Assembly (NCBI GenBank): GCA_035221665.1
Contig: CM069145.1
Span: forward strand, 24,118,001 to 24,182,000
Direction of reading: 5' to 3'
DNA: 64,000 nt
From: Okamejei kenojei
Taxonomy: Eukaryota
A program made the position numbers and the translations under genes. The notes under the pieces were generated by a model. That model was not told where the DNA came from, did not search any database, and was given only the letters and a program-made list of their open reading frames with translations. The first letter of the stretch is position 1. Each line of letters starts with the position of its first letter. Shown piece after piece: positions 1-53,741 of this stretch.

Positions 1-358
1 CTTGCTGTCTCCTCCCCTTCCCACCTCTCCCTCAGCCCTTGGGCCCTGGCATTCCCTCTCTCTCCATCTCCCTCCCCCCACCCTAGTCGCACTAGCTTCT
101 CATTTTCACACCACAAACAGCTTACAATGGCTTGTTCCCTTTATCATCGATACTTTTTTGCATATCTTTCATTCATTGTTCTTTATCTCTCCACATCACC
201 GTTTCCCTGATCCCTGACCAGTCTGAAGAAGAGTCTCGACCCGATACGTCGCCTATCTCCTTCGCTCCTTAGATGCTGCTGCACCCGCTGAGTTTCTCCA
301 GCTTTTTGTGTAACCCTCGATTCTCCAGCATCTGCAGTTCCTTCTTTAACACCTACAC
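1..358 (+). mobile_element. Penelope-like 3' UTR/pLTR fragment
   Basis: Same UTR and terminal repeat as 11170-11520; mutated hammerhead core at 223-250. Confidence 0.7.
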
Positions 359-856
359 AGCACCTGCTGTGTTCCAATGTTCACAGCCCCCCCCCCCCCC
401 CACACACAGACAGACACGATAATCATTAATTTCTGCACTTTCCTGTCTGTTAACCAATCCTCAATCTTATGTGCTTTTTTTGTATCATAATACTTTGCAT
501 TGTTATGATTGTTCTCCTACATCCACTGGTTCCCATTTATTTATTCTGTAGGTACAACAGAAACCTCTAAAGGTTTGTCAAACTTGACAAAAAACATGCT
601 CAATCTGTCATTAATAATTTTTAACCATACACAAAATGTGAGCATTGCTGGCAAAATCAATGTTTACTGCATACCCAACAGCCTTTGAGAAGAGAATGGA
701 TCTTCAAAATTCTCTTTCCAAGACACATGAGGCTGAGTTGCTGAATATATTCAGGACAGAAATTGGTAGGATTTATTCAAAGGTATCTAGCCCATCCCTG
801 CTTATGGTTGTTATATCTAGAGCTAACTGGTCCCCATTGAACATTGGGGGAATAAG

Positions 857-951
857 GGGTACACAAAAAGCTGGAGAAACTCAGCGGGTGCAGCAGCATC
901 TAAGGAGCGAAGGAGATAGGCGACGTTTCGGGTCGAGACCCTTCTTCAGAC
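857..951 (-). mobile_element. Penelope pLTR-derived mini-insert with intact minimal hammerhead core and 11-bp TSD
   Basis: Flanked by GGGGGAATAAG at 846-856 and 952-962. Minus strand reads GTCTGAAGAAGGGTCTCGACCCGAAACGTC. Confidence 0.8.
922..949 (-). ncRNA. Minimal type I hammerhead ribozyme motif (PLE-type), activity untested
   Basis: CUGAAGA-A-GGGU(CUCG)ACCC-GAAAC-GUC; palindromic ACGU stem III; stem I only about 2 bp. Confidence 0.6.
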
Positions 952-1724
952 GGGGGAATAAGTGCTGCTTGATAGTGCTGCTAATCGTGAATCTGCTTGG
1001 GCGAAAAAAAATCTGATCTAACCATATCCAGTTCGATTTCAACTTAATGCCTTAATTTTTTTTTTAATACATGGCCACCTATGGCCAGGTTCTATCAGGT
1101 TTGGGTCAGGTAGCAAGGTTCCAGTGAAAGGACTGTCCATTGTGTGGTTGGTGAAGAACAGATGGAATGATTATTAGTCACACTGCTGAAATGTGTTAAT
1201 TGCAACAGGCCACAGACTCAGTTTTACATATTTCTTTGAGGACTCAACTGCTTAGTGAATGATGACACTGCCAATTTATTTTAAGCAATGACCACAGTAA
1301 TTTATCTGTCCCTGCAGCCTTCAGTGACAGTTCAAAGTGACCCTCAATAAATAAAGAAGGGCTGTAAGTTTGTGCCATGAGACTTGATAGAATCCAGATA
1401 CAATTGCACGAATTGCAGGCTCTGTGGGACTTGACCCTCGATGGTGATGAAGGTGTCAGAGTTATTGGCTGGGGGTCTGTAATTATCCTAGATTATTGCT
1501 TTGCTAGTCTGTGGGATAGTTCCCCCACTCTTCATGTATCCAGATGTTACTGAGAAGGACTTTTCTTGGTTGGCTTGGCTGATTATCATATTCAAATCTA
1601 GTGCCAAAGATGATACCAGGTGGTATGCTTAATTCTACTCTTGAAGATTTTGCATTGCATTTGTACAGCTCGGTTGCTTTTAGTTTACAGCCCAAAGGTA
1701 TGGACATTGAATGAATTTTCCAAT

Positions 1725-2847: not shown

Positions 2848-5077
2848 CAGTGCCCGCCATAATGTTTGGGACAAAGACCAATCATGTATTTAGTTGCCTC
2901 TGTACTCCACAATTTGAAATTTGCAATAGAAAAATATCACATGTGGTTAAAGTGCACATTGTCAGATTTTATTAAAGGGTATTTTTATACATTTTGGTTT
3001 CACCATGTAGAAATTACAGCTGTGTTTATACATAGCTCCCCCTTCTCAGGGCACCATAATGTTTGGGACACATGGCTTCACAGGTCTTTGTAATTGCTCA
3101 GGTGTGTTTAATTGCCTCCTTCATGCAGGTATAGGAGAGCTCTCAACACCTAGTCTTTCCTCCAGTCTTTCCATCACCTTTGGACATTTGTATTATTGTT
3201 TATCAACATGTGGACTAAAGTTGTGCGAATGAAAGTCATAGAAGCTATTATGAGACTGTGAAACAAGAATAAAACTGTTAGAGAGATCAGCCAAACCTTA
3301 GGCTTACCAAAATCAACTGTTTGGAACATCATTAAGAAGAAAGAGAGCACTGGTGAGCTTACTAATCGCAAAGGGACTGGCAGGCCAAGGAAGACCTCCA
3401 CAGCTGATGACAGAAGACTTCTCTCTATAATAAGGAAAAAAAAACAAACACCTGTCCGACAGATCAGAAACACTCTTGTTTGGATTTGTCAATGACCACT
3501 GTCTGCAAAGACTTCATGAACAGATATATAGAGGCTGCACTGTAAGATGCAAACCACTGGTTAGCCACAAAAATGGGATGGCCAGGTTACAGTTTGCCAA
3601 GAAGTACTTAATAGAGCAACCACAGTTCTGGAAAAAGGTCTTGTGGACTGATGAGACGAAGATTAAAGGGCCTGACCCACCAGCATGCGACTCCATGCGG
3701 TGAGCGTGACCAAACTGGAAGCGGGGGCCGCGCGGATGTCGGGTGATCCCCGTACAGGGCCCGTCCCACCAGCATGCACCTGCATGCGGCAAGCGCGACC
3801 AAACCAGCCGCGGAGGTCGGGTGAGTTGCGCGATGTGGTGCGAAGTTGGAGCGATGTCCGCGGTAAGTTCGCAAGCACAGAAAGGGAGACACGGAGGCAC
3901 ACAGAGAGGGGCACGGAGGCATACAGAGGGAGGGCCATGGAGGCACACACAGAGAGGGTCACGGAGGCCCATATAGAGAGGGTCACGGCGGCACGAAGTC
4001 GAGGCGGTGCGTAAATGTGTCGCGGCGGTTATGGGCCGATAGGTTATGGGCCGATAGGCCGTTGCCGCGCTGAATTTTTGAACACGGTCAGTTTTTCGGA
4101 GCCCCGCGTGATGCCGGGACCAGCTCCGCACAACTCCATACGGCTCCAGCGATCGAAGTTGGACCGGCCTCGCGAGGCCGGACGGCTCAAGCGACCACGT
4201 TAGGACGCGCTCACCGCATGGAGTCGCAGGCTGATGGGACAGGCCCTTAACTTACAATCAGCGTGAGTGCTAGAGCAAAGTATGGAGGAGAGAAGGAACT
4301 GCCCAAGTTCCAAAGCATACCACCTCATCAGTGAAACACGGTGGTGGGGGTGTTATAGGCTGGGCATGTATGGCTGCAGAAAGTGCTGGCTCACTTATCT
4401 TCATTGATGATACAAGTGCTGATGGTAGTAGCTTAATGAATTCTGAAGTGTATGGACACATCCTATCTGCTCAATTGCAAACAAATGCCTCAAAACTCAT
4501 TGGCCATCGGTTCATTCTACAGCAAAACAATGATCCCAAACATCCCGCTAAAGCAACAAGGCAATTTTTCAAAGCTAAAAAATTGTCAAATCTTGAGTGA
4601 CCAAGTCAATCGCCCGATCTGAACCCAATTGAGCATGCCTTTTATATGCTGAAGAGAAAACTGAAGGGGACAAGCCCCCAAAACAAGCTTAAGGTAAAGA
4701 TGGCTGCAATACAGGCCTGGCAGAGCATCACCAGAGAAGACACCCAACAACTGCCGATGTCCATGAATCGCAGACTTCAAGTAGCCATTGCATGCAAAGG
4801 ATATGCAACAAAAATACTAAACATGACTACTTTTATTTACATGACATTGCTGTGTCCCAAATATTATGGTGCCCTGAAATGGGGGGACTATGTATAAACA
4901 TTGCTGTATTTTCTACATGGTGAAACCAAAATGTATAAAAAATACCCTTTAATAAAATCTGACAATGCACTTTAACCACGTGATTTTGTCTATTGCATGT
5001 CTCAAATTGTGGAGTACAGAGGCAAATAAATAAATGATGGACACATTGCTGTGTCCCAAACATTATGGAGTGCATAG
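2848..5077 (+). mobile_element. Decayed Tc1-family (IR/DR type) DNA transposon
   Basis: TA|CAGTGCCCGCCATAATGTTTGGGACA...TGTCCCAAACATTATGGAGTGCATAG|TA, with ~225 bp TIRs and inner direct repeats. Transposase fragments WKKVLWTDETK, VKHGGGGVIGWAC, FILQQNNDPKH and SPDLNPIE; frameshifts and stops present. Confidence 0.93.
3667..4247. mobile_element. PIF/Harbinger-type non-autonomous element nested in the Tc1 transposase
   Basis: TAA|AGGGCCTGACCCACCAGCATGCGACTCCATGCGGTGAGCG...CGCTCACCGCATGGAGTCGCAGGCTGATGGGACAGGCCCT|TAA. Removing it restores the Tc1 frame TDETKINL. Confidence 0.85.
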
Positions 5078-5830
5078 TATATGGTCTTGTTGGTTCTCAT
5101 ATGAATTTCTAAGCATACGCTCTTAAAAGCATTCCAATGTTTTCTTTGGGGGGTCTGTAGCTGTTCTGTGGTCTCCTTCCAAAGTTTAAAGACATTTCAG
5201 AGGTTTTTTAAACTGGATACCTTTTACAAGCCTCATAGCTATTAAAGCAGGATGTTGCTTCATACATAATGAAAAAACAACAGAGAACAACCTTATGAAA
5301 ACCCATGCACTTCAGAACCACCTATATTTAAAATTCTATTTCCATGAGCTAGAATATAATTTTAAACTGTGCTCCAAATAATAGCTGAAGCAGCATTTCA
5401 TAAAATTGGTAGCCTTTTATGCTCCTTTATATGAAAAAAGGTTGATGTAATTTTAATTTTATTTTGTAGGCATTTTGAATTGGTTAATATTTCTCATTTG
5501 TAATAAATTTGTAAGACTTGATTCTTGATTCAATAGAATTTATTGTCATGTGTTCCAGATAGGGCAATGAAATTCTTGCTTTGCTTATATCTCCCTTTCA
5601 AATTTCCTTACTTGCTTTTTTGCTTTTGCAAAGGGGGGGGGGGGGGGTTAGGGAATCAAAGGGAAACTTCTGAACTAACTTAATTTAATCAAGCGTGCAA
5701 TAGTTTCCTGTTAACTGTGTTAATGGAATAAAAAATCTAATGAAAGTTAAATGTGAAAAATTATGTATGGATTCACTCAGTGTTTCATGTATCAGTACAA
5801 CGTATGCTTGTTTTCTCGAATTTGTTTCAG

Positions 5831-6021
5831 AGCGGTCACCCCACAGGCCCATTCTTCAAGCAGGATTGCCTGCAAATAGAACAGCATTGGTGGGAAGTGA
5901 TGTGGAGTTTGTATGTAAAGTATTCAGTGATGCCCAACCCCATATACAGTGGCTGAAGCATGTTGAAAAGAATGGCAGTAAATATGGTCCAGATGGAGCT
6001 CCTTACTTCAATATTTTAAAG
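5831..6021 (+). CDS. fgfr2: FGFR2 exon IIIa (IgII-IgIII linker and first half of IgIII)
   Basis: ttcag|AGCGG...TTAAAG|gtttga, 191 bp. Encodes (E)[63 protein letters not shown], the FGFR2-type sequence. Confidence 0.97.
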
Positions 6022-7085
6022 GTTTGAAAATTCAAAGGCTTTCAGGATGTGATGTTTTTGAGGAGTGATGTTTGTTATCAATAATGAAAAAATATCCATA
6101 TTTTAATTATCTGCAGACATCCATTTTGTTTTACATTATTCCTAATTCTAGTTAAATCCCAATCATTTCTCGTGAAATTGAATTATTTTTCTTCTCAAGT
6201 TCCATTGCTAAAAATACCTCTACATTTCAAATAACTTAAAAACATTGTGCAGAACAGATGGCTCCTGGATCTAATTGGTCTGTCAAGTAAGATAGTCCAT
6301 CTGAATCATTCCACTTCCTACTCCACTCTTTGTTCATAAGTAAGCAGCATATTCTGATTCTGAGTTTAATTCTGATCAGAGATCCTATGAAGAACAAAAG
6401 TGAAGATGGCAAGCTCCACCCATAGTCTTTGACAGCTGGGTGAGCCACACCATCAGGTTTAATCTGGTGTCAAAACTGTTAACAGCCAATGAATGTCTCT
6501 GACATTCACAAGCAAATGAAATATTTTTATCTTCAAATATATTATAAACATTTAAAATAATTTATACTTAAAAACTGGTGCATTATGTAATTTATAAGTT
6601 GCTTCATTCAATTACCCAAAACTTGACTATCTCTCTCAGAGCCATTTATCTCCAATGCAATAAAGGGAGACGCTGATCTTGTTCAGGTTTAATCAATAGA
6701 CTCCCAACTTAACCACTGGAACACTGAAGGAATTGGATCTCTGCCTGGTGGACTCCAAGTGTTATCAGTGGCAGAACAAAGTTGGAAAGATAGTGATCAA
6801 ATTTCAGAAAGATTGACCCTTGCTGAAAGAAAGATACTCCACTGGTTTAAAACATGCCAACTAAACTGGTATGACCTATTCCTGCAGAATCGTTCATTTA
6901 ATGATTTTTCACAGTCCTTTCTTCTCCTTCATGACAAAGATTGTGGGCCGTTTTCGTGAATAAAATAATTTTCTTTATTTCAAAAAGTTATTTCATGTGG
7001 AGATTAATGCTGGTGGTGGGATATGAGCTCTGTTCATGCCAGAATGGCAATTATATTGTTATCTTCTGTTATTGGTTTGTTCTAG

Positions 7086-10310: not shown

Positions 10311-11520
10311 GTCGGAAAGAACTGCCAAGGGGGATAGGATGAAATAAAGGTATTTAATGTCGGAAGGGACTTTCTCCGTCTCCGCCGTATTAGCTCCCCA
10401 GATGGGGCTTTCCATTCCAGGACATTCGAGATGTCCACAGGTTGACACAAAATGCTGGAGTAACTCGGTGGGACAGGCAGCATCTCTGGAGAGAAGGAAT
10501 GGGTGATGTTTTGGATCGAGACCCTTCAGACTGATGTCACTCCATTCAAGATGTCCTTTCTTTAGTAAGCGTGGTTTTCCCCCTGCTCTCAGATAGATCC
10601 CTCACCTTTGTCTCCACTGTGACTCATTGTCCTGCTCTCGCTCGCTCCCCCCCTCCCCGACGAAACAGAAATATAGTGATCCAACATTTCAGTCACATCT
10701 TCCGATCCCCCACCCTTTTCTGCCTTCCGCAGAGACCACTCACTCAGCAACTCATTGGTACATTCATCCCTTCCCACCCAAATCAACCCCTCACCTGGTA
10801 CCTTCCCCTGCAACTGCGGGAGATGTAATGTCTGTCCCTATACCTTTTCCCCCACATCCATCCAGGGACCCCAGCAGTCCTCCCAGGTGAGACAAAGGTT
10901 CATGTACAACTCCTCTAACATTCAACTACTGAATCTGGTGTTCCCGACGTGGCCTTATGACATCTGCGAGAGTAAGCATAGATTCAGCGACTGTTTTGCT
11001 GAAAACATGCTCAGACCACAAAGGCTTACGAGATCTCCTGGCTGCTAACCATTGTAACTCCTCTTCCCATTCCCTTTCTGTCCTGGGCCGCCTCCACTGC
11101 CAGAGCGAGGCAACACACAAACTGGAGGAACAGCGTCTCATGTTGTTAATTAATTCATGTTGTTAAGTAGCTAACATACACCTCCCCCCTCTCTTCCCTG
11201 TGCCCCACCTGGACCTGCATCCATTTCACCCCTCCCACCTGTGTTCCTTCCTCTGTCTTCGCAATTTATATTTTTTCCATCATCTCATTTTTTTGTCTCT
11301 TCATCTCTGACCTTTGTCCAACCATCTGCCTATCAAAACCCCCCTCACCTATATCTGCCTATCACCTGCCAGCCTTAGTACTGCTCTCCTCTCTTCCAGC
11401 TTTCTTCCCACCCCCACCACTATCAGGCTGAAGAACGGTCACAACCCTAAATGTCACCTATCAATGTTCTCCAGAGATGCTGCCTGACCCGCTAAGTTAC
11501 TCCAGCACTTTGTGTCTTTT
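10311..11520 (+). mobile_element. Penelope-like retroelement 3' part (RT C-terminus, GIY-YIG endonuclease, pLTR)
   Basis: Degraded peptides FLRLRRI, PGTFPCNCGRCNVCPY, QVRQRF, ESKHRFSDCFAE and LHCQSEATHKLEEQ, followed by a pyrimidine-rich UTR and the ctgaaga...gatgctgcctgacccgct terminal repeat. Confidence 0.8.
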
Positions 11521-12857: not shown

Positions 12858-13632
12858 CAAGAGAGTTTATTGTCATGTGTCCCAGATAGGACAGTGGAAC
12901 TCTTGCTTGCTGCAGCACAACAGAGTATTGTAAGCATAAATACAGAACAGTTCAGTGCGTCTATATAGCACAGACCATATATATACACACATAAATAAAC
13001 AGATAAAGTGCAATAGGCTGTTATAGTTCAGAGTTTGTTTGATGGCGTGTTTAATAGCCGGATGGCTGTGGGGAAGAAGCTGTTCCTGAACCTGGATATA
13101 CCAGATTTCAGGCTCCTGTACCTTCTACCTGATGGCAGCAGAGAGATGAGTGTGTGGCCAGGGTGGTGTGGGTCCTTGATGATGTTGGCAGCCTTTTTGA
13201 GGCAACGACTGCGATAGATTCCTTCGATGGTGGGGAGGTCAGAGCCGATGATGGACTGGGCAGTGGTCATAACTTTCTGCATTCTTTTACGCTCCTGGAC
13301 GCTCAAGTTGCCGAACCAAGCCACAATGCAACCAGTCAGTATGCTCTCTACTGTGCACCTGTAGAAGTTCGAGAGACTCCTCTTTGACATACCGACTCTC
13401 CGTAATCTTCTCAGGAAGTAGAGGCGCTGATGTGCTTTCTCTGTAATTGCATCAGTGTGCTGGGACCAGGATAAATCTTCGGAAATATGCACGCCCAGGA
13501 ATTTGAAGTTCTTGACCCTTTCCACCATCGTCCCATTGATATAAATGGGATTGTGGGTCCCTATCCTACCCCTTCCAAAGTCCACAATCAATTCCTTGGT
13601 TTTTCTGGTGATGAGAGCCAGGTTATTGTGTT
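12858..13632 (-). mobile_element. Rex1/Babar-like LINE, 5'-truncated (RT C-terminal region plus 3' UTR)
   Basis: ORF 13028-13591 reads IVDFGR...VERVKNFKFLGVHISEDLSWSQHT...AHQRLYFLRRLR...FYRCTVESILTGCI...LLPSGRRYRS...RFRNSFFPTAIRLLN. The UTR ends gacacatgacaataaactctc. Confidence 0.85.
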
Positions 13633-18114: not shown

Positions 18115-18265
18115 GGTAGACACAAAATGCTGGCGTAACTCAGCGGGACAGGCAGCATCTCATGGGCAAAGGGCAAAATCAGAGATGCTGCTTGTCCCGC
18201 TGAGTTACTCCAGCACTTTGTGTCTACCTTCGATTTAAACCAGCATCTGCAGTTATTTCCTACAT
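18115..18265. mobile_element. Fold-back pLTR-derived insert with 13-bp TSD
   Basis: AGTACCTATTGGG (18102-18114) / AGTACGTATTGGG (18266-18278). Inverted arms ggtagacacaaaatgctgg...gcatctc / gagatgc...ccagcactttgtgtctacc. Confidence 0.8.
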
Positions 18266-20416
18266 AGTACGTATTGGGCCATTTCTTCCTAATTGTTAAC
18301 CCCAAGCCATCAAAGGTATCAGAACTTTAAACTTGGATTGTTTGCGACTCATTGGGTCAGTATTCAGATGCTTAGTGTATGCGTAAATAAAGAAACTGCT
18401 AGAAATAATAGTGGAAATACTGGAAGAACTCGGCTAATCAAGCAACATCTGTGGAAAAATAAAACAGTTAACATTTCTTTTCAGAGAGCTTTTGTCAATT
18501 TTTGTTTCAGATTCCTGTATTTTTGTTTTATTTGTTTCACAGATTGCTAGAAATGTTGAGCAAGCTAAGTTGAAATCTCTAGGAGATTTCTCTTTGCATT
18601 CTGGCATTGGATATCTATCTGAAAGGGGAGGCTGATTCTGCTTTAGAGTATCATGCCAAAAATGGCATGTCTGACAGTGCATTGTTAGAAATTGTGTCAG
18701 CCGGTTGTATTTAAATTCCAGATTGGGCTGAAGGCAAGGATTTTCTAATCTATATTACAAATATTGTGTATCAATTCTTCGGAATATATAAATTTTCAAC
18801 CTTATTACACAGCAAGGAACTGCAACCATAAGAAATGTAGTTTTGTTTGCATTCAGAAATCAGTATGTGCGATCACATACAAAATTAGATGCAAGTCCTC
18901 CATATTGTATGTTTGAGCAGTGCTGCAGCAGTGGTGAAGGTTGCATTGGTGTTTATGGCCAGGGGGTATGGACCACTTGTCCAAGAGCCAGTTTTGGAAG
19001 CCGACAATTTGATATTTAGATTCTTACCTATCTATTCTGAGGTCCTTTTGAGGAATGTTTCCCATTGGCATAGGGTGACAATTTCTTTACTGCAAACATT
19101 TGCCTAATGGGAATTGCATTGATTGTTTAAAATACTAATAATAAATAAAGATTGAAAAATTGGGGACTGGATTTATCTCTTGGGATCAACTAGTATTTGA
19201 GTTACCTGATCTACCATTAAGTTTTATACATCATCTACAAAGTAAAGGGAATAAAATAAATATCAATGTTAAATAAAGGTGGACTTTGCTGAAAAGCAAT
19301 TTTTCATAATTTTAATCAAAGTGGCAGGTAATAACTAACCCGCATTAAGCAGAATATGTGCTCCAAAGTGTTTTACCTGGTACGCTTAGGATTCATTACC
19401 CCATATTCTCACTATATTCATTACCAAATTCATTACCCCATATTCTCACTATATATTCATTAGACTGCCAAAGGAGAATAGCACCCTTGATCTCACTGGG
19501 GCCAAAATTAAGGACTGGGTATATTCTTAAGCCTGTATTTCTAGCTGACACCAAGGGTGATTATGCACAATGGACATTTGTAACTGGATGTAAAGATGTA
19601 ATGGGGGATGGTTGAATGTGACTGGTTATGGGACTGACCTCTTAAACAGTATTCATTAAGGCATCAGGTGAAAATGGCATTTATTTTACTTGTCTAAGTG
19701 GTAGCTTTGGTGAGAGAACGATCTCGCTGGGAAAGAAAGTATACAGCATAATCTTTTTGTTCTACTTGTACCCAGCAAGTATTTCAATTAAATGAATGCC
19801 TCTAAAAAGCTATGTACTTTAAGTAATGCCTGCATTATTCTGGTCGCTACTGCAATCTGTGAACCTACATATTGCTTGCAAGCCTCAGGGGACATACTAA
19901 ACTTGGAAAATTCTAGTGCATCACATTTATGAAAACAGTGTAGGTGGTGCAGGTTTGCTGTGAAAGAGAGCTTTGAGAGTCGACTATTAGATCTTAAATA
20001 CATTTCCAGCACAATGAAAGGATTGTAGAATTCTGTGGAACTCACTATCTGGAGGAATTTAAATTGACTTACCTGCAAATGTCAATGTTTTTTTAACATC
20101 ACTGTTTCAAAATACAAGTCGGATAGAGATCTTAACTGATATTTATTCAATAAGAGTGAAGTTTTCACAAATATAAAGAGTTCATGCTTTACAGGAACAC
20201 AGTTGTTCATTAAAAAAATCTTTAAAAGTCCTTTTCAGCACAGACTCCAGTTACGCTCGCAATTTTTTTTATTCAAATAGTTCTCTAAATTTAGTAGATG
20301 TTATGGTTTACAAATTTGTCCTTGTCGGTTGTTACTTATCTTGTATTACATTTTCAGCAGCATGTGGGAATGGTGTTTCAATCCAACTATTGGTGGGATC
20401 ATTATCTTTCTTACCT

Positions 20417-21537: not shown

Positions 21538-22719
21538 TAAACTTTAGTACGGATGGATTACAAAAAAAGAGCTCTTGGCAATGACTGCAGATTTTGGCAG
21601 ATCCAAATAGTGCTACTAAATAGAGGCTTGAATCTTTAGTTATTGGACGGGAGAAAATGCAAATATCACACTCGGCAATTGTAGTTTCTCTTGGATAAGG
21701 GCTGGCATTGACGGCGAGCTAATACCGACTTTCTCAGTTCTCACAAAGCATGTGGTATGAAGGAAGCAAAAAAAAATCATTTATTTTTGAACGCATGATG
21801 AAAAATATGATTGGTCACTTATTTGTAATGCTAAAAATCACCCAGTCACAGAAAACAGCATCATGGTGAATTCACGAACAGTTTAACATGGATGATTTGC
21901 TTAATTGTTCAAGTTAAAAAATAATTCAAACATGCTTACATTTTTGCTCTGTATCCTTTTTATGCTGCTGGTGAAAGACTAAATTTCACTCCATAATCTT
22001 TTGTTGCTTTCAACCACTCTGCAGGAGCCATTTTTTCCACAGCTTTAAAGTAAAATGAGACAACCTGTGACACGAATCGCAGAGAAAATAACTAAAAGGC
22101 AGGACCAAACTAAAAGAGTGGAATTTTATTTATTTTCAAATGTGAAAGTTATCTTTATGTCTGAAACTTATATCCAACTGCTTCAAAGTATATACACTGA
22201 GATAGGGAAATGTGTCTGAAATCTGAACCAATTACTTTCTAGTACAAAACAGATGCCAAACATTTTGCAGTAATTTTTTTTTTTCCTTTTTGATGTGTCT
22301 CATTGAGATGAGATCATATTTGAATAAAAACACAAGAAGATTAATTATCACAGTTTCTTCAAACATGTTTTGACATTTTTGCAAGTTCACTTTGGGCCCT
22401 CAGAACTCGCTGCCGACTGCTTCATCCCCATATAGTAATCAAAATAGTGTGTACCTCTACAGTTGGAATGAGAAATAAATAAAAACATCATCTGGCTGCC
22501 CATGGTGAATTTTATCTCACTAGACAAAAATGTAATACAGTGATTTTGGAGGAATTGGTGAGGAGAGTTTAATACATTGCATTTTGCCAGTTTTTTGTCA
22601 ATTAGTGTTCAGGTCTTTACTAGTTTGGATTCTTACACTGGAAAGTGAGATCTGTATTAAGCATAAGTGTGTCTTTATTGCCAATGTGCTTACCCACCCC
22701 AATTTTTGTTTTTATCCAG

Positions 22720-22910
22720 GCCCATTGTATGTAATTGTTGAATTCACAGCCAAGGGAAATCTGCGTGAATATTTGCGTGCACGGCGACCCCCTGGAATGG
22801 AATATACATTTGACATAAACCGTGTATCTAATGAACAGTTAACATTCAAGGACCTGGTATCGTGTACCTATCAAGTGGCGAGGGGCATGGAGTACTTGGC
22901 TTCACAAAAG
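22720..22910 (+). CDS. fgfr2: FGFR2 kinase exon (hinge, kinase insert)
   Basis: tccag|GCCCA...CAAAAG|gtatgc, 191 bp. Encodes (G)[63 protein letters not shown]. Confidence 0.97.
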
Positions 22911-23554
22911 GTATGCAACCTTGAAGTGGACAAATTCCATTGAAATTCAAAAAGTCTTGTAAATATTTGATAAACTGATACAAATTTACAAAGGTAGCTT
23001 TTCAGGTGCAATCTAGATTGTAACAACATTATCTCTATTAGGACAGCAAACATCTGCTTATCAAACTACTCCATGTATTGCTGGTAAAAAGTTAAATATT
23101 TATACAAAGGCATACAATCTTGTACAATCTGGCAGTATTCACTGTTCAGTTTCATACTGGAATTTCTATCCATTGGAGAGAGTGGGAGGTAAATGCTAAT
23201 TTGACCTTTGTGCTAGTATTTTTAAATCTGCTTAATCCAGGAAAGGATGTCTATTTACAACACAATGCTAGTCATTACCCTAAACCTGTGAGATTAAGAT
23301 TTAAAATTAGTCAGACAAAGAGGGACCATTTGTGTTGCTGGCATGAGCACTGGCTTTAGCTTCCTTCCCATTTTCAGTCAATACTTTGACAATTGATCCT
23401 AATTTTACCCACTGCTTTTTAGTGCCTTTTTGAAAAATGTAAGATTGTGCGAGTAGAGAAAAGAATCATTAAAGTAGGACAAGGAGCTGTTACATACCTT
23501 TTGTTATACAGGCTACTTCACCTCGTTATACAGGCTACTCCCCCTCTACTCTTT

Positions 23555-24868: not shown

Positions 24869-25238
24869 TGTTTACCTGTGACCAGTCTAGATGAAGGGCC
24901 TCAACCTGAACGGTAGACTGTCCATTTCTCTCCACAGATGCTGCTGAGTTCCTCCAGCTGCTCTGCTTTTTTTTAAAAAACAGATTCCTGTCTTTACTGC
25001 CTCCAGAATACCACAAGGTGTTTTGTTGAAGAATTAAACCTTTTTCTTGCTCAGTTCCCACCACCAAATATAGCAAGTCTATCTTATTGCAAACAGGGAT
25101 CGGGGAATCCTCTGTCCGCATATAATCGCATTCTTTCTCGTAAAACGCACCGAGTTTTCGAACCTTAATATTCAGTCCTCAGTGTGTGTACCTGAAATAC
25201 ACCCACAGGGCTGGAAAGTTTCTCGACCTTGCTTGTAA

Positions 25239-32711: not shown

Positions 32712-32798
32712 GGGGGTTACACAAAATGCTGGAGAAACTCAGCGGGTGCAGCAGCATCTAAGGAGCGAAGGAGATAGGCGACGTTTCGTTTCTTCGTT
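32712..32798 (-). mobile_element. pLTR-derived mini-insert with 17-bp TSD
   Basis: AACAATTAAAGTAATGT at 32695-32711 and 32799-32815. Confidence 0.8.
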
Positions 32799-47509: not shown

Positions 47510-48125
47510 ATGGAGTCATACAGCATGGAAACAGGTCCTTCAGTCCAACTTTCCCACATCGACCAACATGTCCCATCTACACTAGACTCACCTGCCTTTG
47601 TTTGGTCCACATCCCTCTAAACCTGTCCTATCCATGTACCTGTCTAGGGTACACAAAATGCTAGAGAAACTCAGCGGATGCATCAGCATCTATGGAGCGA
47701 AGGAGATAGGCAACGTTTTGGGCCGAAACCCTTCGTCAGGGTTTCGGCCCAAAACGTTGCCTATCTCCTTCACTCCATAGATGCTGCTGCACCCGCTGAG
47801 TTTCTCCAGCATTTTGTGTACCCTCGATTTTCCAGCATCTGCATGTACCTGTCTAATCGTTTCTCAAACATTGCAATAGTCCCAGCCTCAACGTCCTCCA
47901 CTGGCAGCTCATTCCATACACCCACCACCCTTTCTGTGAACAAGGTACCCCTCAAATTCCAATTAAATCTTTTCTCCTTCATCTTAAACCTACATATGTC
48001 CTCTGGTTCTCGATTCCGTTACTATAGGCAAGAGATTCTGTATCTACCCGATCTATTCCTCGCATGTTTTTATACACCTCTATAAAATCACCACTCACCC
48101 TCCTGTGCTCCAAGGAATAGAGCCC
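47510..48125 (-). mobile_element. CR1 LINE 3' fragment (host of the fold-back insert)
   Basis: Peptides LYSLEHRRVSGDFIEVYK and FTERVVGVWNELP...FEKRLDRYM. Confidence 0.8.
47647..47841. mobile_element. Near-perfect fold-back pLTR insert with 14-bp TSD inside a CR1 3' end
   Basis: CATGTACCTGTCTA at 47633-47646 and 47842-47855; ~85 bp inverted arms around a 7-nt loop. Confidence 0.85.
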
Positions 48126-48692: not shown

Positions 48693-48877
48693 CCATGTCC
48701 TCCAGAGATGCTGCCTGACCCGCTGAGCTACTCCAGCACTCTGTGAAACGTCACCTATCCATGTCCTCCAGAGATGCTGCCTGACCCGCTGAGTTACTCC
48801 AGCACTCTGTGAAACGTCACCTATCCATGTCCTCCAGAGATGCTGCCTGACCCGCTGAGTTACTCCAGCAGTCTGTG
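48693..48877 (+). repeat. Tandem 66-bp repeat (~2.8 copies) of a pLTR segment
   Basis: ccatgtcctccagagatgctg recurs at 48693, 48759 and 48825. Confidence 0.9.
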
Positions 48878-51800
48878 TTCTATGCAAGATTTCAGCATCT
48901 TCAGTTCCTAGTATCTCTGTCTCTCTGATTTAATTATACCTTTGGTTAGTTTTATGATTTTAACTGGGGGGGGGGGGGGGGGGGCAATTGCAACTGAGAA
49001 TTAGCACCCTGCAGATCACACGCAGCAAAGGAGGATGAAATCCCACTTCCAGGTAAAGGCATTTTACCAGAGCTACACGTCATGGAGATGCTCCTCCCCT
49101 CCATTCAGTGCTGTGATCAATCCCGGCCAACCTGTCGGCCATAGGATTAGCCTGCAAAGTTATACTGTCTGTATTTCAAAGTCTGTGTTAAGACATAGCT
49201 ATCATTAAAAACTGTGTTATGTTACCAGACTAATATAAAAAAAAGATCAGTCTTTTAGCCTTGTAATTTTCAGTGTTTAACATTAAACACATAGAACAAA
49301 TCAGTACCCAGTCTTAACATACGTGATCAGAGACGTTAATATTGCAAACATAATTCTCCTGCAAACTTTATGGGAGTTGGGAAAGAACAAGAAGGAATTT
49401 AATGTTCCACTAAAGCCGCAAGTGTTGAGAGATATACGCTGTTTTCTAAATTATTTCAACCACTTTAAAGTATAATTTAAGCCTTACATAAATATTTACA
49501 CTAGAGAGAACCCTTCATATAAGTGCTTCTTTGAGGCATGCTAACTGCATTAGAATAGTGCTGAATGAATACTTTCAGCTTTCATTGAAACCAACTTGTT
49601 TTCAAATAACTCTTTCTGTACCTGTCTGGAATGTGTGTTACAGGGTAAATTTGCTGAAATATTCCAGTGCATGTTTTTTTTCCCCTGAACCAGAAATGTG
49701 TTTTTGAGGGGGGGAATGTGGGGGGCAGCAGGGGGGAGGGAGGTGGAGAGGAATGAACTTTGATCTCTAAAAGCCCTCTGAGAAAGATCAATGTTTCATG
49801 CTTTCCCCATTTCCCTTTAAGCTGAAAACAGCAAAGCATTTCATTACCACTGTACCAATGTTTTAATGTCCCCCTGGCTTGCCTCTCAGATTTAGTGTGA
49901 GCATTTTCTTTTTGTTTTCACACATCAGGCAGTACTACGAGCAGACTAGTAATGGTTCCATTTTGAAAGGAGCTCTGTGCTGTAAAAGCAGTGCTATCCA
50001 TCAGAAGTGTCATTTCAGGAATGTGGCCAGATGTATTGACTTTCTGGCAATGGCATTGGTGCCATCTGGCCTACTGGAGGCCGATGCTGACAGAGATGAA
50101 AACTCAACTCAAACTCACAGAATTGTGTCATGTATTGGCTCTTAAATGCAACGCTGTCTATACTGTGTTTATTTTAATAGTTCCTTCGAGTTTCCAGCAA
50201 ATTTAAAAGAGATTGCCGAGTTCATTTTGCAAGATAATTGAAGTTAGGGGGGGGATCCTTTTGTGTTGACATTTAATTCATGCTGCCAGCAGATGATTTT
50301 CCAACAATGATATAATGTGGCCACGTATAAAATTATAGATCACATGGGAAGCAAAAGTGTGTCCCGCAATTAACAGAGCTGATAAGAAGCGAATAAACTG
50401 CCTGGGAAGAGGCACAAAGTCAGCTCAGTAGCACGAGCTGCAGAACTTGACTCGTTTGCAAGGGGGTCAGGAGTTCAAGTACACGAGCTGCCTTACTCTC
50501 TTGAATCAGTTTACCTGAACTTCCTTGGTTGCAAATAATACTTGGGCTTGGAGTGTCTTCCGAAGGAGGAAAAGGAATGTTAGCAATATAATATCCAATT
50601 CATCCTTCTTGAATTTCACAAGGTGCCTCGGCACTGTGGAGCATATCTGACGGGGTTATGTGTGTACAAAACAGATCTCTCCTTCACAGGATGAATGCCT
50701 CTGCCAAGCAAAGAGGGACAAGGAGACAAAGGTGTTAAAAAAAAAAGAAACTCCAAATGCACACAAAGCATTTTGTCCCCACCCCCACATTAAGTAGTTT
50801 CAATATAACATTGTTCGAAAAACTAAAACTCAGTCAACTCAAGGTCTTAACCCCAAAACATCGGCCATTCCTTCTCTCCAGAGATGCTGCCTGTCCCGCT
50901 GAGTTACTCCAGTTTTTTGCGTCTATCTTCGGTTTTAACCAGCATCTGCAGTTCCTTCCTACACATACTGGATTTTATTACCCACACAGCTTAGAACACC
51001 CCTGACATTATCCAGTAAAGGTGATAAAACAGCCCTCATATTTGTCATTGCTAGTGCCAGCAGATCAGGTATCTAAAAAAAATAAATGTTTATTAAAAAG
51101 AAAGCTAGCCACTAAAAGATACTGACAGATGTTGCAGCAGGAGACTGGTTCACTGAATCATAGGTACTGAAGTTGGCCTTTCAGCCCATCACATCCATGC
51201 TAACCTAAAATGGGTTTTACATTAATCTCATTTAACAACTCTTGTAGTTTATGTTCTGTTGTGCTGAAGCAAAGCAAGAATGTCATTGTCCTATCAGGGA
51301 CACATGACAATAAACTCTCTTGAATCTTGAATCTTGACTTTATGGCTCTTCTGGGTCAACTAGGGTTGGTCACTTAATTATTATGGGCCTAAGGGCTCAG
51401 AATTAATCTGCATTTTAAACGTAAACTTGCTCGCTGAATCTCCACCACACAGAGAGTACGCCTACGGAGTTCCCAGTTCACGAAACTCACCCCCTACAGT
51501 TGAGCAGATGCATTGCTGAACAGTCAGTAGCAGCAAACAATCTGCTGGAGGAATTCAGCGTGCCAGGCAACATCTGTGGAGGGAAATAGATGGTCGACCT
51601 TCCTCCTCCATCGATGCTGCCTGACCAGCTGAGTTCCTCCAGCAGCTAATTTGAGGCTCCAGATTCCAATCTCTCGTTGCTCTAGAGTCAAGAGTGTCTA
51701 AATATTGTGTATGCTGGCGATGGAAAAATTAAATTCTTACTTGCTGCAGTGTGACAGGCCCATCACTGCAATAATATACAAATAAACATGAAACAATCAA

Positions 51801-53610: not shown

Positions 53611-53741
53611 TAAAGAAGGAACTGCAGATGCTGAAAAATCGAGGGTACACAAAAGGCTGGAGAAACTCAGCGGGTGCAGCAGCATCTAAGGAGCGAAGGA
53701 GATAGGCGACGTTTCGGGTTGAGACCCTTCTTCAGACTCTA
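53611..53741 (-). mobile_element. pLTR-derived mini-insert with hammerhead core and 15-bp TSD
   Basis: TTTATTATCAGGTCT at 53596-53610 and 53742-53756. Minus strand reads CTGAAGAAGGGTCTCAACCCGAAACGTC. Confidence 0.82.

Follow-up and report, generated by a model that had tools for sequence, protein, structure and literature searches.

A 95-bp insert on the minus strand at positions 857-951 of the 64,000-nucleotide stretch of Okamejei kenojei DNA analysed here (the window) is, judged by its sequence, the solo pseudo-LTR (pLTR) of a 4.0-kb Penelope-like element (PLE) encoding a reverse transcriptase (RT) and a GIY-YIG endonuclease (EN), rather than a retrozyme in its own right, and as such an ordinary, dead stub belonging to a known class. 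An earlier note on this DNA had placed the insert between perfect 11-bp repeats at 846-856 and 952-962, read here as the two copies of a target-site duplication, and had read its minus strand as GU-CUGAAGA-A-GGGU(CUCG)ACCC-GAAAC-GUC; both were borne out on re-reading. Model positions are numbered in the RNA sense with the C of CUGAAGA as 7, so that window position equals 956 minus model position for the 95-bp insert, which covers model 5-99 and has the short type of 3' end. A minimal type I hammerhead motif is predicted at 920-951 (minus strand), with a helix I of 2 bp (951-950 paired to 921-920), CUGAAGA at 949-943, an additional A, helix II at 941-930, GAAAC at 929-925 and the palindrome ACGU at 926-923. 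The predicted cut falls between model 34 and 35, which is between 922 and 921 in the insert. The hammerhead-bearing family is not due to chance, since a 31-nt hammerhead word had 31,731 exact matches in the genome compared with 0 for its reversed control, and a reversed-sequence HMM control gave 0 matches (664 kb).

The family accounted for 486 matches and 3.4% of bases in 1.34 Mb of DNA (134 arbitrary 10-kb stretches, five of them adjoining the window), which extrapolates to about 1 million matches in the 2.76-Gb genome. Copies extended in the 5' direction contain a pyrimidine-rich UTR, a GIY-YIG endonuclease and a reverse transcriptase; the Pfam matches to RVT_1 (E 9e-5) and GIY-YIG (E 0.014) were both weaker than the Pfam cut-off, and the motifs were read directly. 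RT followed by a C-terminal GIY-YIG domain with a CCHH motif, linked to the unit, is the arrangement of EN+ Penelope-like elements. The unit followed the EN stop in 12/12 copies selected for EN and lay at 30 of 42 EN C-termini in arbitrary DNA, with 3 more at stretch edges; it also stood ahead of ORF1 in 33 of 40 ORF1-start copies (16/20 and 17/20). Its presence both after EN and before ORF1 identifies the unit as a pseudo-LTR. Units at both element ends together with partial tandems are likewise found in EN+ Penelope elements, and the unit-to-unit period was 4,001 nt at locus L279. The CX4CxxC linker between RT and EN has the CX2-5CxxC form of the Neptune/Nematis clade, and this motif points to Neptune or Nematis as the putative clade. 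ORF1 starts at model 169, and a stop ahead of the RT region is common to several copies (L107, L113, L119, L130, L131; L279), suggesting two ORFs instead of the single ORF canonical for PLEs. Two sister subfamilies (L092, L095 and other A2 copies) have the ORF and the pLTR in common and differ in 3' UTR length, and their helix II loop is either CUCG with U-A or UUCG with U-G.

Across 90 columns, no difference separated the insert from the ends of five copies linked to ORFs. In a comparison of low power (86 alignment rows, 90 columns), the solo label required 15 changes versus 16.3 when shuffled, and solos formed no clade and had no private variants. No position split 12 solos from 35 long copies of the subfamily of the insert, again with few columns and low power. 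The separate non-coding element mobilised in trans that had been proposed earlier is thus replaced by the pLTR of a coding element, and the proposed insertion by a Penelope RT/GIY-YIG protein is supported.

The window holds 34 family matches and not the six independent insertions previously counted, and both core boxes are intact in only 2 of those six inserts. The sister copy at 53611-53741 (minus strand) is a solo pLTR whose 3' end is of the long (tail) type, and the 15-bp duplication claimed for it is perfect (53596-53610/53742-53756). The duplications claimed for four other relatives stood for two of them. At 32712-32798 (minus strand), a solo pLTR that begins at model 26, carries about 10 untemplated nt and lacks CUGAAGA lies inside a 17-bp duplication, and at 47647-47841 a head-to-head inverted pair with one short and one longer arm lies inside a duplication of 14 bp. 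At 10436 and 18115 only 8 and 7 bp were exact, or about 13-14 bp by eye if one mismatch is allowed; the former (10436-10542, minus strand) is an older solo pLTR with a 3-nt deletion in the 5' core box (CUGAAGA) and an imperfect duplication, and the latter (18115-18265) is a head-to-head inverted pair of another subfamily without any part of the hammerhead. The 3' UTR and 3' pLTR (from 219) of a Penelope-like copy of the same subfamily as the 95-bp insert occupy 1-354 (plus strand); this copy is at least 3.2 kb long and begins upstream of the window.

Older relatives were also seen at 24889-24959, 51514-51647 and 18415-18458. The first of these, one decayed copy, could pair as a 5-bp helix I (CAGUC/GACUG), a hint that this helix may have become shorter in younger families. 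At 48693-48910 (plus strand) pLTR positions 27-93 are repeated in tandem with a 66-nt unit and a fixed junction, an arrangement that also occurs at L004, L024, L029 and L212. The junction had 16,112 exact matches in the genome, 88 of the first 100 being at C1 188.6-192 Mb. The repeats keep the substrate half of the hammerhead and have lost the 5' core box, and they are possibly a separate derived family. Elsewhere in the window, plus-strand exon-like pieces with immunoglobulin and tyrosine-kinase matches were observed at 5704-6024 and 22536-22940; by these matches the window probably lies within a receptor tyrosine kinase gene, with the 95-bp insert antisense to it. Fragments of a Tc1-type transposase (3434-3700) and of LINE type (13031-13630) were also present (Pfam PF01498, PF09004).

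The short copies have two fixed types of 3' end and a sharp 5' boundary. The 3' ends fall at model 94-105 or 129-136, and in 67 of 86 head-to-head inverted pairs one arm is long and the other short (p 8e-8). The long and short ends correspond to the tail already known and fit a pair of internal priming sites, as in PMC11167929, and inverted 5' copies with a one-sided 30-40-bp tail are features of EN+ Penelope elements. Folding places the two 3' ends on either side of a predicted two-tier stem-loop, located in the insert at 858-897 (minus strand), with the short end at its base and the long end at the base of its extension; these two bases are likely the two priming sites. For the 5' ends, the subfamily group of the insert (A) was tallied by hand in 1.40 Mb, where 61 alignment rows gave 52 events after one stretch-edge row was dropped and 19 inverted arms were counted as 11. 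Of these events, 41 ended at -1 to +39, none at -92 to -2 and 11 beyond -92. The 5' boundaries are therefore non-random, with 41/52 events ending at the hammerhead. Ten of 30 non-inverted short copies in subfamily A had no duplication, and these could be UTRs lacking a reference. With duplications as the sole guide, 31 of 55 non-inverted copies started at -4 to 37, 29 of them at -4 to 21, compared with about 0.7 in a swapped-flank control. Target duplications of solos measured 10-17 bp, and duplications were 69% AT versus 57%; long-range duplication matches were at chance level and were excluded from analysis. No duplication-bounded solo started at the predicted cut (35), save one decayed copy near 37.

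The hammerhead itself has the core boxes, the additional nucleotide, the G10.1-C11.1 pair and the palindromic 15.2-16.2 positions of the PLE minimal type I class, and these core features bear out its earlier assignment as a Penelope-type minimal hammerhead. Seven cluster consensuses (312 near-complete units) varied at 3 of 32 positions in model 5-36 compared with 20 of 62 in 37-98, making the hammerhead region more conserved than the remainder; the three variable positions were a loop base, a CpG, and U-A versus U-G in helix I. This helix has only 2 bp (U-A 151, U-G 44; G-C 164), and two-sided covariation was absent. The Rfam scan returned no hammerhead at E<=10; its matches were confined to hairpin look-alikes from miRNA families that scored below the gathering thresholds. 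The insert folded no better than shuffles (z = 0.32), and the hammerhead was absent from its minimum-energy fold. The decay of single copies like dead DNA, together with the Anolis element in which the ribozyme needs protein and is dispensable for insertion (PMC11167929), implies that selection acts in master elements.

An independent non-autonomous retrozyme or SINE-like family, spreading via hammerhead-cut or circular RNA, would fit the huge excess of short copies (EN lay within 700 nt of only 30 of 234 non-inverted full units) and the conservation of the hammerhead region across subfamilies, and excerpts of bioRxiv 2026.07.22.740005 describe monomer derivatives of retrozymes. This explanation is nevertheless largely refuted and highly improbable. 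Retrozymes consist of tandem units that each carry a complete hammerhead, whereas the solos are single or inverted, many copies lack part of the core, and the motif was intact in only 42 of 216 gap-free copies. Retrozyme units are bounded or permuted at the cut, but the 5' ends seen here (-4 to 21) are not at 34/35, and the copies had no non-autonomous lineage of their own within the 90 columns of low power. The hammerhead dimer fold (-6.3 kcal/mol) was also far from the cofold minimum of -41.6, or -19.7 for the motif alone. The suggestion of a retrozyme-like unit spread via processed or circular RNA is thus not upheld, the 5' ends being at the 5' edge of the ribozyme and not at the cut after GUC.

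Long copies behave differently at this edge. Of 40 ORF1-start copies, 7 had no 5' pLTR, 4 ended within it and 29 reached the hammerhead, where 7 stopped and 22 extended far upstream (end offsets in this count read 3-4 too low). A stop in 7/29 long copies compares with 41/52 subfamily A events (p 3e-6). Copies with an uninterrupted body passed the edge in 16/16 cases and composite copies (described below) stopped in 4/4, a split that is post hoc and omits nine copies with other breaks, of which 3 stopped and 6 passed; L183-L202 provided only 1.8 kb of body. Such a split is not expected from a structural stall. Full-length copies, which would also be expected to stop at the edge had every RNA begun there, seldom do so, which means that a second template must be assumed. 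Plain 5' truncation of copies begun at the 3' pLTR, the enzyme having stalled either on the hammerhead fold or on the near-palindrome TCAG-T-CTGA, is therefore unlikely. It would account for the one-sided spread of 5' ends to about +26 and for the roughly 5 of 40 measured inverted joints that lie on the palindrome, and palindromes at inverted junctions are reported in the accessible part of PMC3846280. However, the ends fall past the fold, once it has already been copied, the other 35 joints lie elsewhere, and a stall would not account for A-tract and G junctions at this very edge. As a common joint of inverted pairs the palindrome was rejected (46 of the 86 pairs were not anchorable). Recombination between the two pLTRs of full-length copies, like that producing solo LTRs, is hardly conceivable as the source of the solos. 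Duplications would survive it, and the part of PMC3846280 that was seen ascribes duplication-free solo pLTRs to recombination or deletion, but the 5' pLTRs of 22/29 long copies extend far upstream and solos do not, solos are vastly more numerous than ORF1 starts, and inverted pairs have the same edge.

New here are copies with ORF1/A-tract/pLTR junctions at the fixed 5' edge. These composites run from pLTR position 2-9 through the leader and ORF1 to about 580, followed by a few additional bases and a second pLTR from 3-9 to a normal 3' end, and each sits inside a single duplication (13 bp at L270 and L275; 12 bp at L201). Composites of about 680 nt were seen at L264, L270, L275, L201 and L283-L302 (e.g. 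L275:3841-4516). Twenty loci from a junction-bearing query, 27 of whose 40 scored matches cross the junction, were analysed with five others; that query, the source of 20 of the 25 loci, favours ORF1 ends near 585, and at the unbiased loci 4 of 5 jumps to the edge ended at ORF1 576-586. In 26 junctions ORF1 ended at 576-594 (25 at 576-586), with one further at 1206. At least two A were present in 19/26 junctions, A-tracts of 27-35 nt in two, and a poly(A) signal was absent at 500-640. Tandem composites of two or three copies (L284, L287, L293) had a period of about 580 (583-589), and successive junctions inside one tandem were unlike one another (L284, L287).

Fifteen junctions resumed at position 9, and all 15 had an additional G where the template has T; they have seven different ORF1 ends and so do not represent one event. 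Outer 5' ends at 9 were also preceded by G in 6 of 7 cases, with the bases further upstream varying. Among the first 100 of 2,877 genome matches, a hand tally found G before position 9 in 44 compared with about 30 expected (p 0.002). G excess was absent at position 4 (29/100 vs 27, first 100 matches) and in the arbitrary sample (4/16 vs 4.6 expected). Position-4 starts were preceded by A in 57/100, often as GA (C1, among the matches listed), perhaps from a slip on the repeated GAAG or as another subfamily. At the 5' inverted joints of L285 and L288 an arm ending at 9 is followed by an additional C and G, as expected if each of two run-off cDNAs had gained a C. With other reverse transcriptases an additional G is readable as a copied cap. 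The G could also come from the source locus or be an untemplated addition, and the literature search found no paper on cap copying as an additional nucleotide. A depth step at the unit in contigs of four sequencing runs (three possibly DNA) is a hint only.

RNA processing was considered as a source of the edge, through a 3' splice site or exonuclease trimming, with composites arising from ligated circles of about 580 nt. An acceptor-like pyrimidine tract with CAG at model 3-5, the Drosophila virilis intron that ends at helix I (PMC4209133) and the period of the tandem composites (583-589) would agree with this, and a donor-like AAG/GTATGC was observed at the ORF1 start (L187:1490-1510), for which a spliced copy was not found. 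But many solos retain CAG, CCAG or GACCAG, a common 5' exon is absent, there were zero donor-acceptor junctions in the DNA analysed, and junctions within one tandem differ, unlike rolling-circle copies of a single circle. Processing is decidedly improbable on this evidence.

The explanation we favour, and consider probable, is that solos are run-off cDNA primed internally on uncut element RNA, likely capped, that starts at or inside the hammerhead. The RT and GIY-YIG protein would prime reverse transcription at a site some 95 or 130 nt away from where the RNA begins, and the cDNA would run off this 5' end, giving the cluster of starts at about 0-5 and 9. Staggered nicks may generate the target duplication. 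The run-off cDNA would yield a solo when inserted by itself, an inverted pair when it is joined head-to-head to another cDNA primed from the other site, and a composite when it first jumps to the oligo(A) tail of a short (about 575-nt) transcript. If the A-tract is the tail of an RNA and the G a copied cap, as we infer, the edge would be a real RNA 5' end. The hammerhead would be a passenger in solos, inverted pairs and composites, and an RNA starting at 9, being without core C3-U4, would be unable to cut itself. Long copies do not stop at the edge and so need another template. They and the partial-tandem copies may derive from an effectively endless one, such as a read-through tandem, a circular RNA or scar-free homologous transfer; circular templates for PLEs were proposed in PMC4209133.

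More tentatively, and with well under even probability, a two-template life cycle may be kept in the genome, in which a short RNA feeds the stubs and an endless template the long copies. Capped RNAs would start at or inside the hammerhead, so that the 5' copy could not cut itself, and a prematurely A-tailed transcript of about 575 nt would feed solo and inverted stubs. Cap-to-tail jumps between RNAs might then seed 580-nt hammerhead tandems, as nascent retrozymes, and the endless template of long copies would possibly be a ribozyme-made circle.

In the accessible portions of PMC8557442 and PMC3846280, EN+ PLEs of Neptune/Nematis type share with this family an RT followed by GIY-YIG with an internal CxxC, the CX4CxxC linker, partial-tandem pLTRs, inverted 5' copies, a one-sided tail of about 33 nt, variable long duplications and heavy 5' truncation. 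Compared with what is described there, this family differs in its short copies with a sharp common 5' edge, its many solos with their own duplications, and an upstream ORF1 seemingly apart from RT-EN. The hammerheads agree with the minimal motifs of metazoan PLEs (Cervera and de la Pena 2014, PMC4209133) in the core boxes, the additional nucleotide after position 9, the G10.1-C11.1 pair, the palindromic 15.2-16.2 positions and the absence of helix III, and in both cases most motifs lie singly and dispersed, or in close pairs on opposite strands. Minimal hammerheads left by truncated PLEs, both solo and on opposite strands, were already published in 2014 (PMC4209133). Helix I has 2 bp here, as in D. 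virilis, versus the typical 4-5, with a helix II of 4-5 bp (PMC4209133). Unlike in those hammerheads, one main RNA start (position 9) would fall within a core box. The D. virilis start lies 46 nt plus a 75-nt intron upstream, according to the parts consulted of PMC2377424 and PMC4209133, and is therefore no direct precedent.

The Anolis Poseidon element PAc studied in vitro (Frangieh et al. 2024, PMC11167929) likewise has, downstream of the hammerhead, one internal priming site on each side of the tail, as well as extension of both strands, AT-rich targets and uncut RNA as substrate. PAc belongs to another clade. In the present family the pLTR comes first and ORF1 begins behind it, at model 169, and the RNA 5' end and jumps are deduced from genomic copies. 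Non-LTR retrozymes, in the sections seen of PMC7229834 and bioRxiv 10.64898/2026.07.22.740005, are similar in their type I hammerhead, relation to pLTRs, long duplications and non-coding nature, and the latter derives retrozymes from pLTRs, one cartilaginous fish included. As described there, they are tandem with a hammerhead per unit and yield cut monomers and circles, whereas the inserts here are single or inverted and identical to the ends of a coding element; by that description the members of this family closest to a retrozyme are its rare tandem composites of 580 nt. End-to-end jumping by the R2 reverse transcriptase (PMC8857657, seen in part) similarly adds untemplated nucleotides and then continues on the 3' end of a second RNA, but was observed in vitro with a non-LTR enzyme, whereas here it would be deduced from PLE genomic junctions. 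A-tract junctions and template jumps were not found for PLEs in the literature searched, although Repbase/Dfam, subscription papers and supplements may hold the family; PMC3846280, in the part available, does explain inserts in rotifer ORFs by template jumps and inverted ends by self-priming.

The insert is of moderate interest because its relatives fix testable start, end and priming positions of the copied RNA. At about 3% of sampled DNA, the family is relevant to repeat annotation. The junction copies point to exact positions at which the copied RNA would start (model 0-9), end (576-594) and be primed (two sites), and touch on the open questions of how PLE RNA is defined, how pseudo-LTRs and partial tandems originate and what role the hammerhead has. 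They also offer a concrete route by which a coding element may give rise to a hammerhead tandem repeat.
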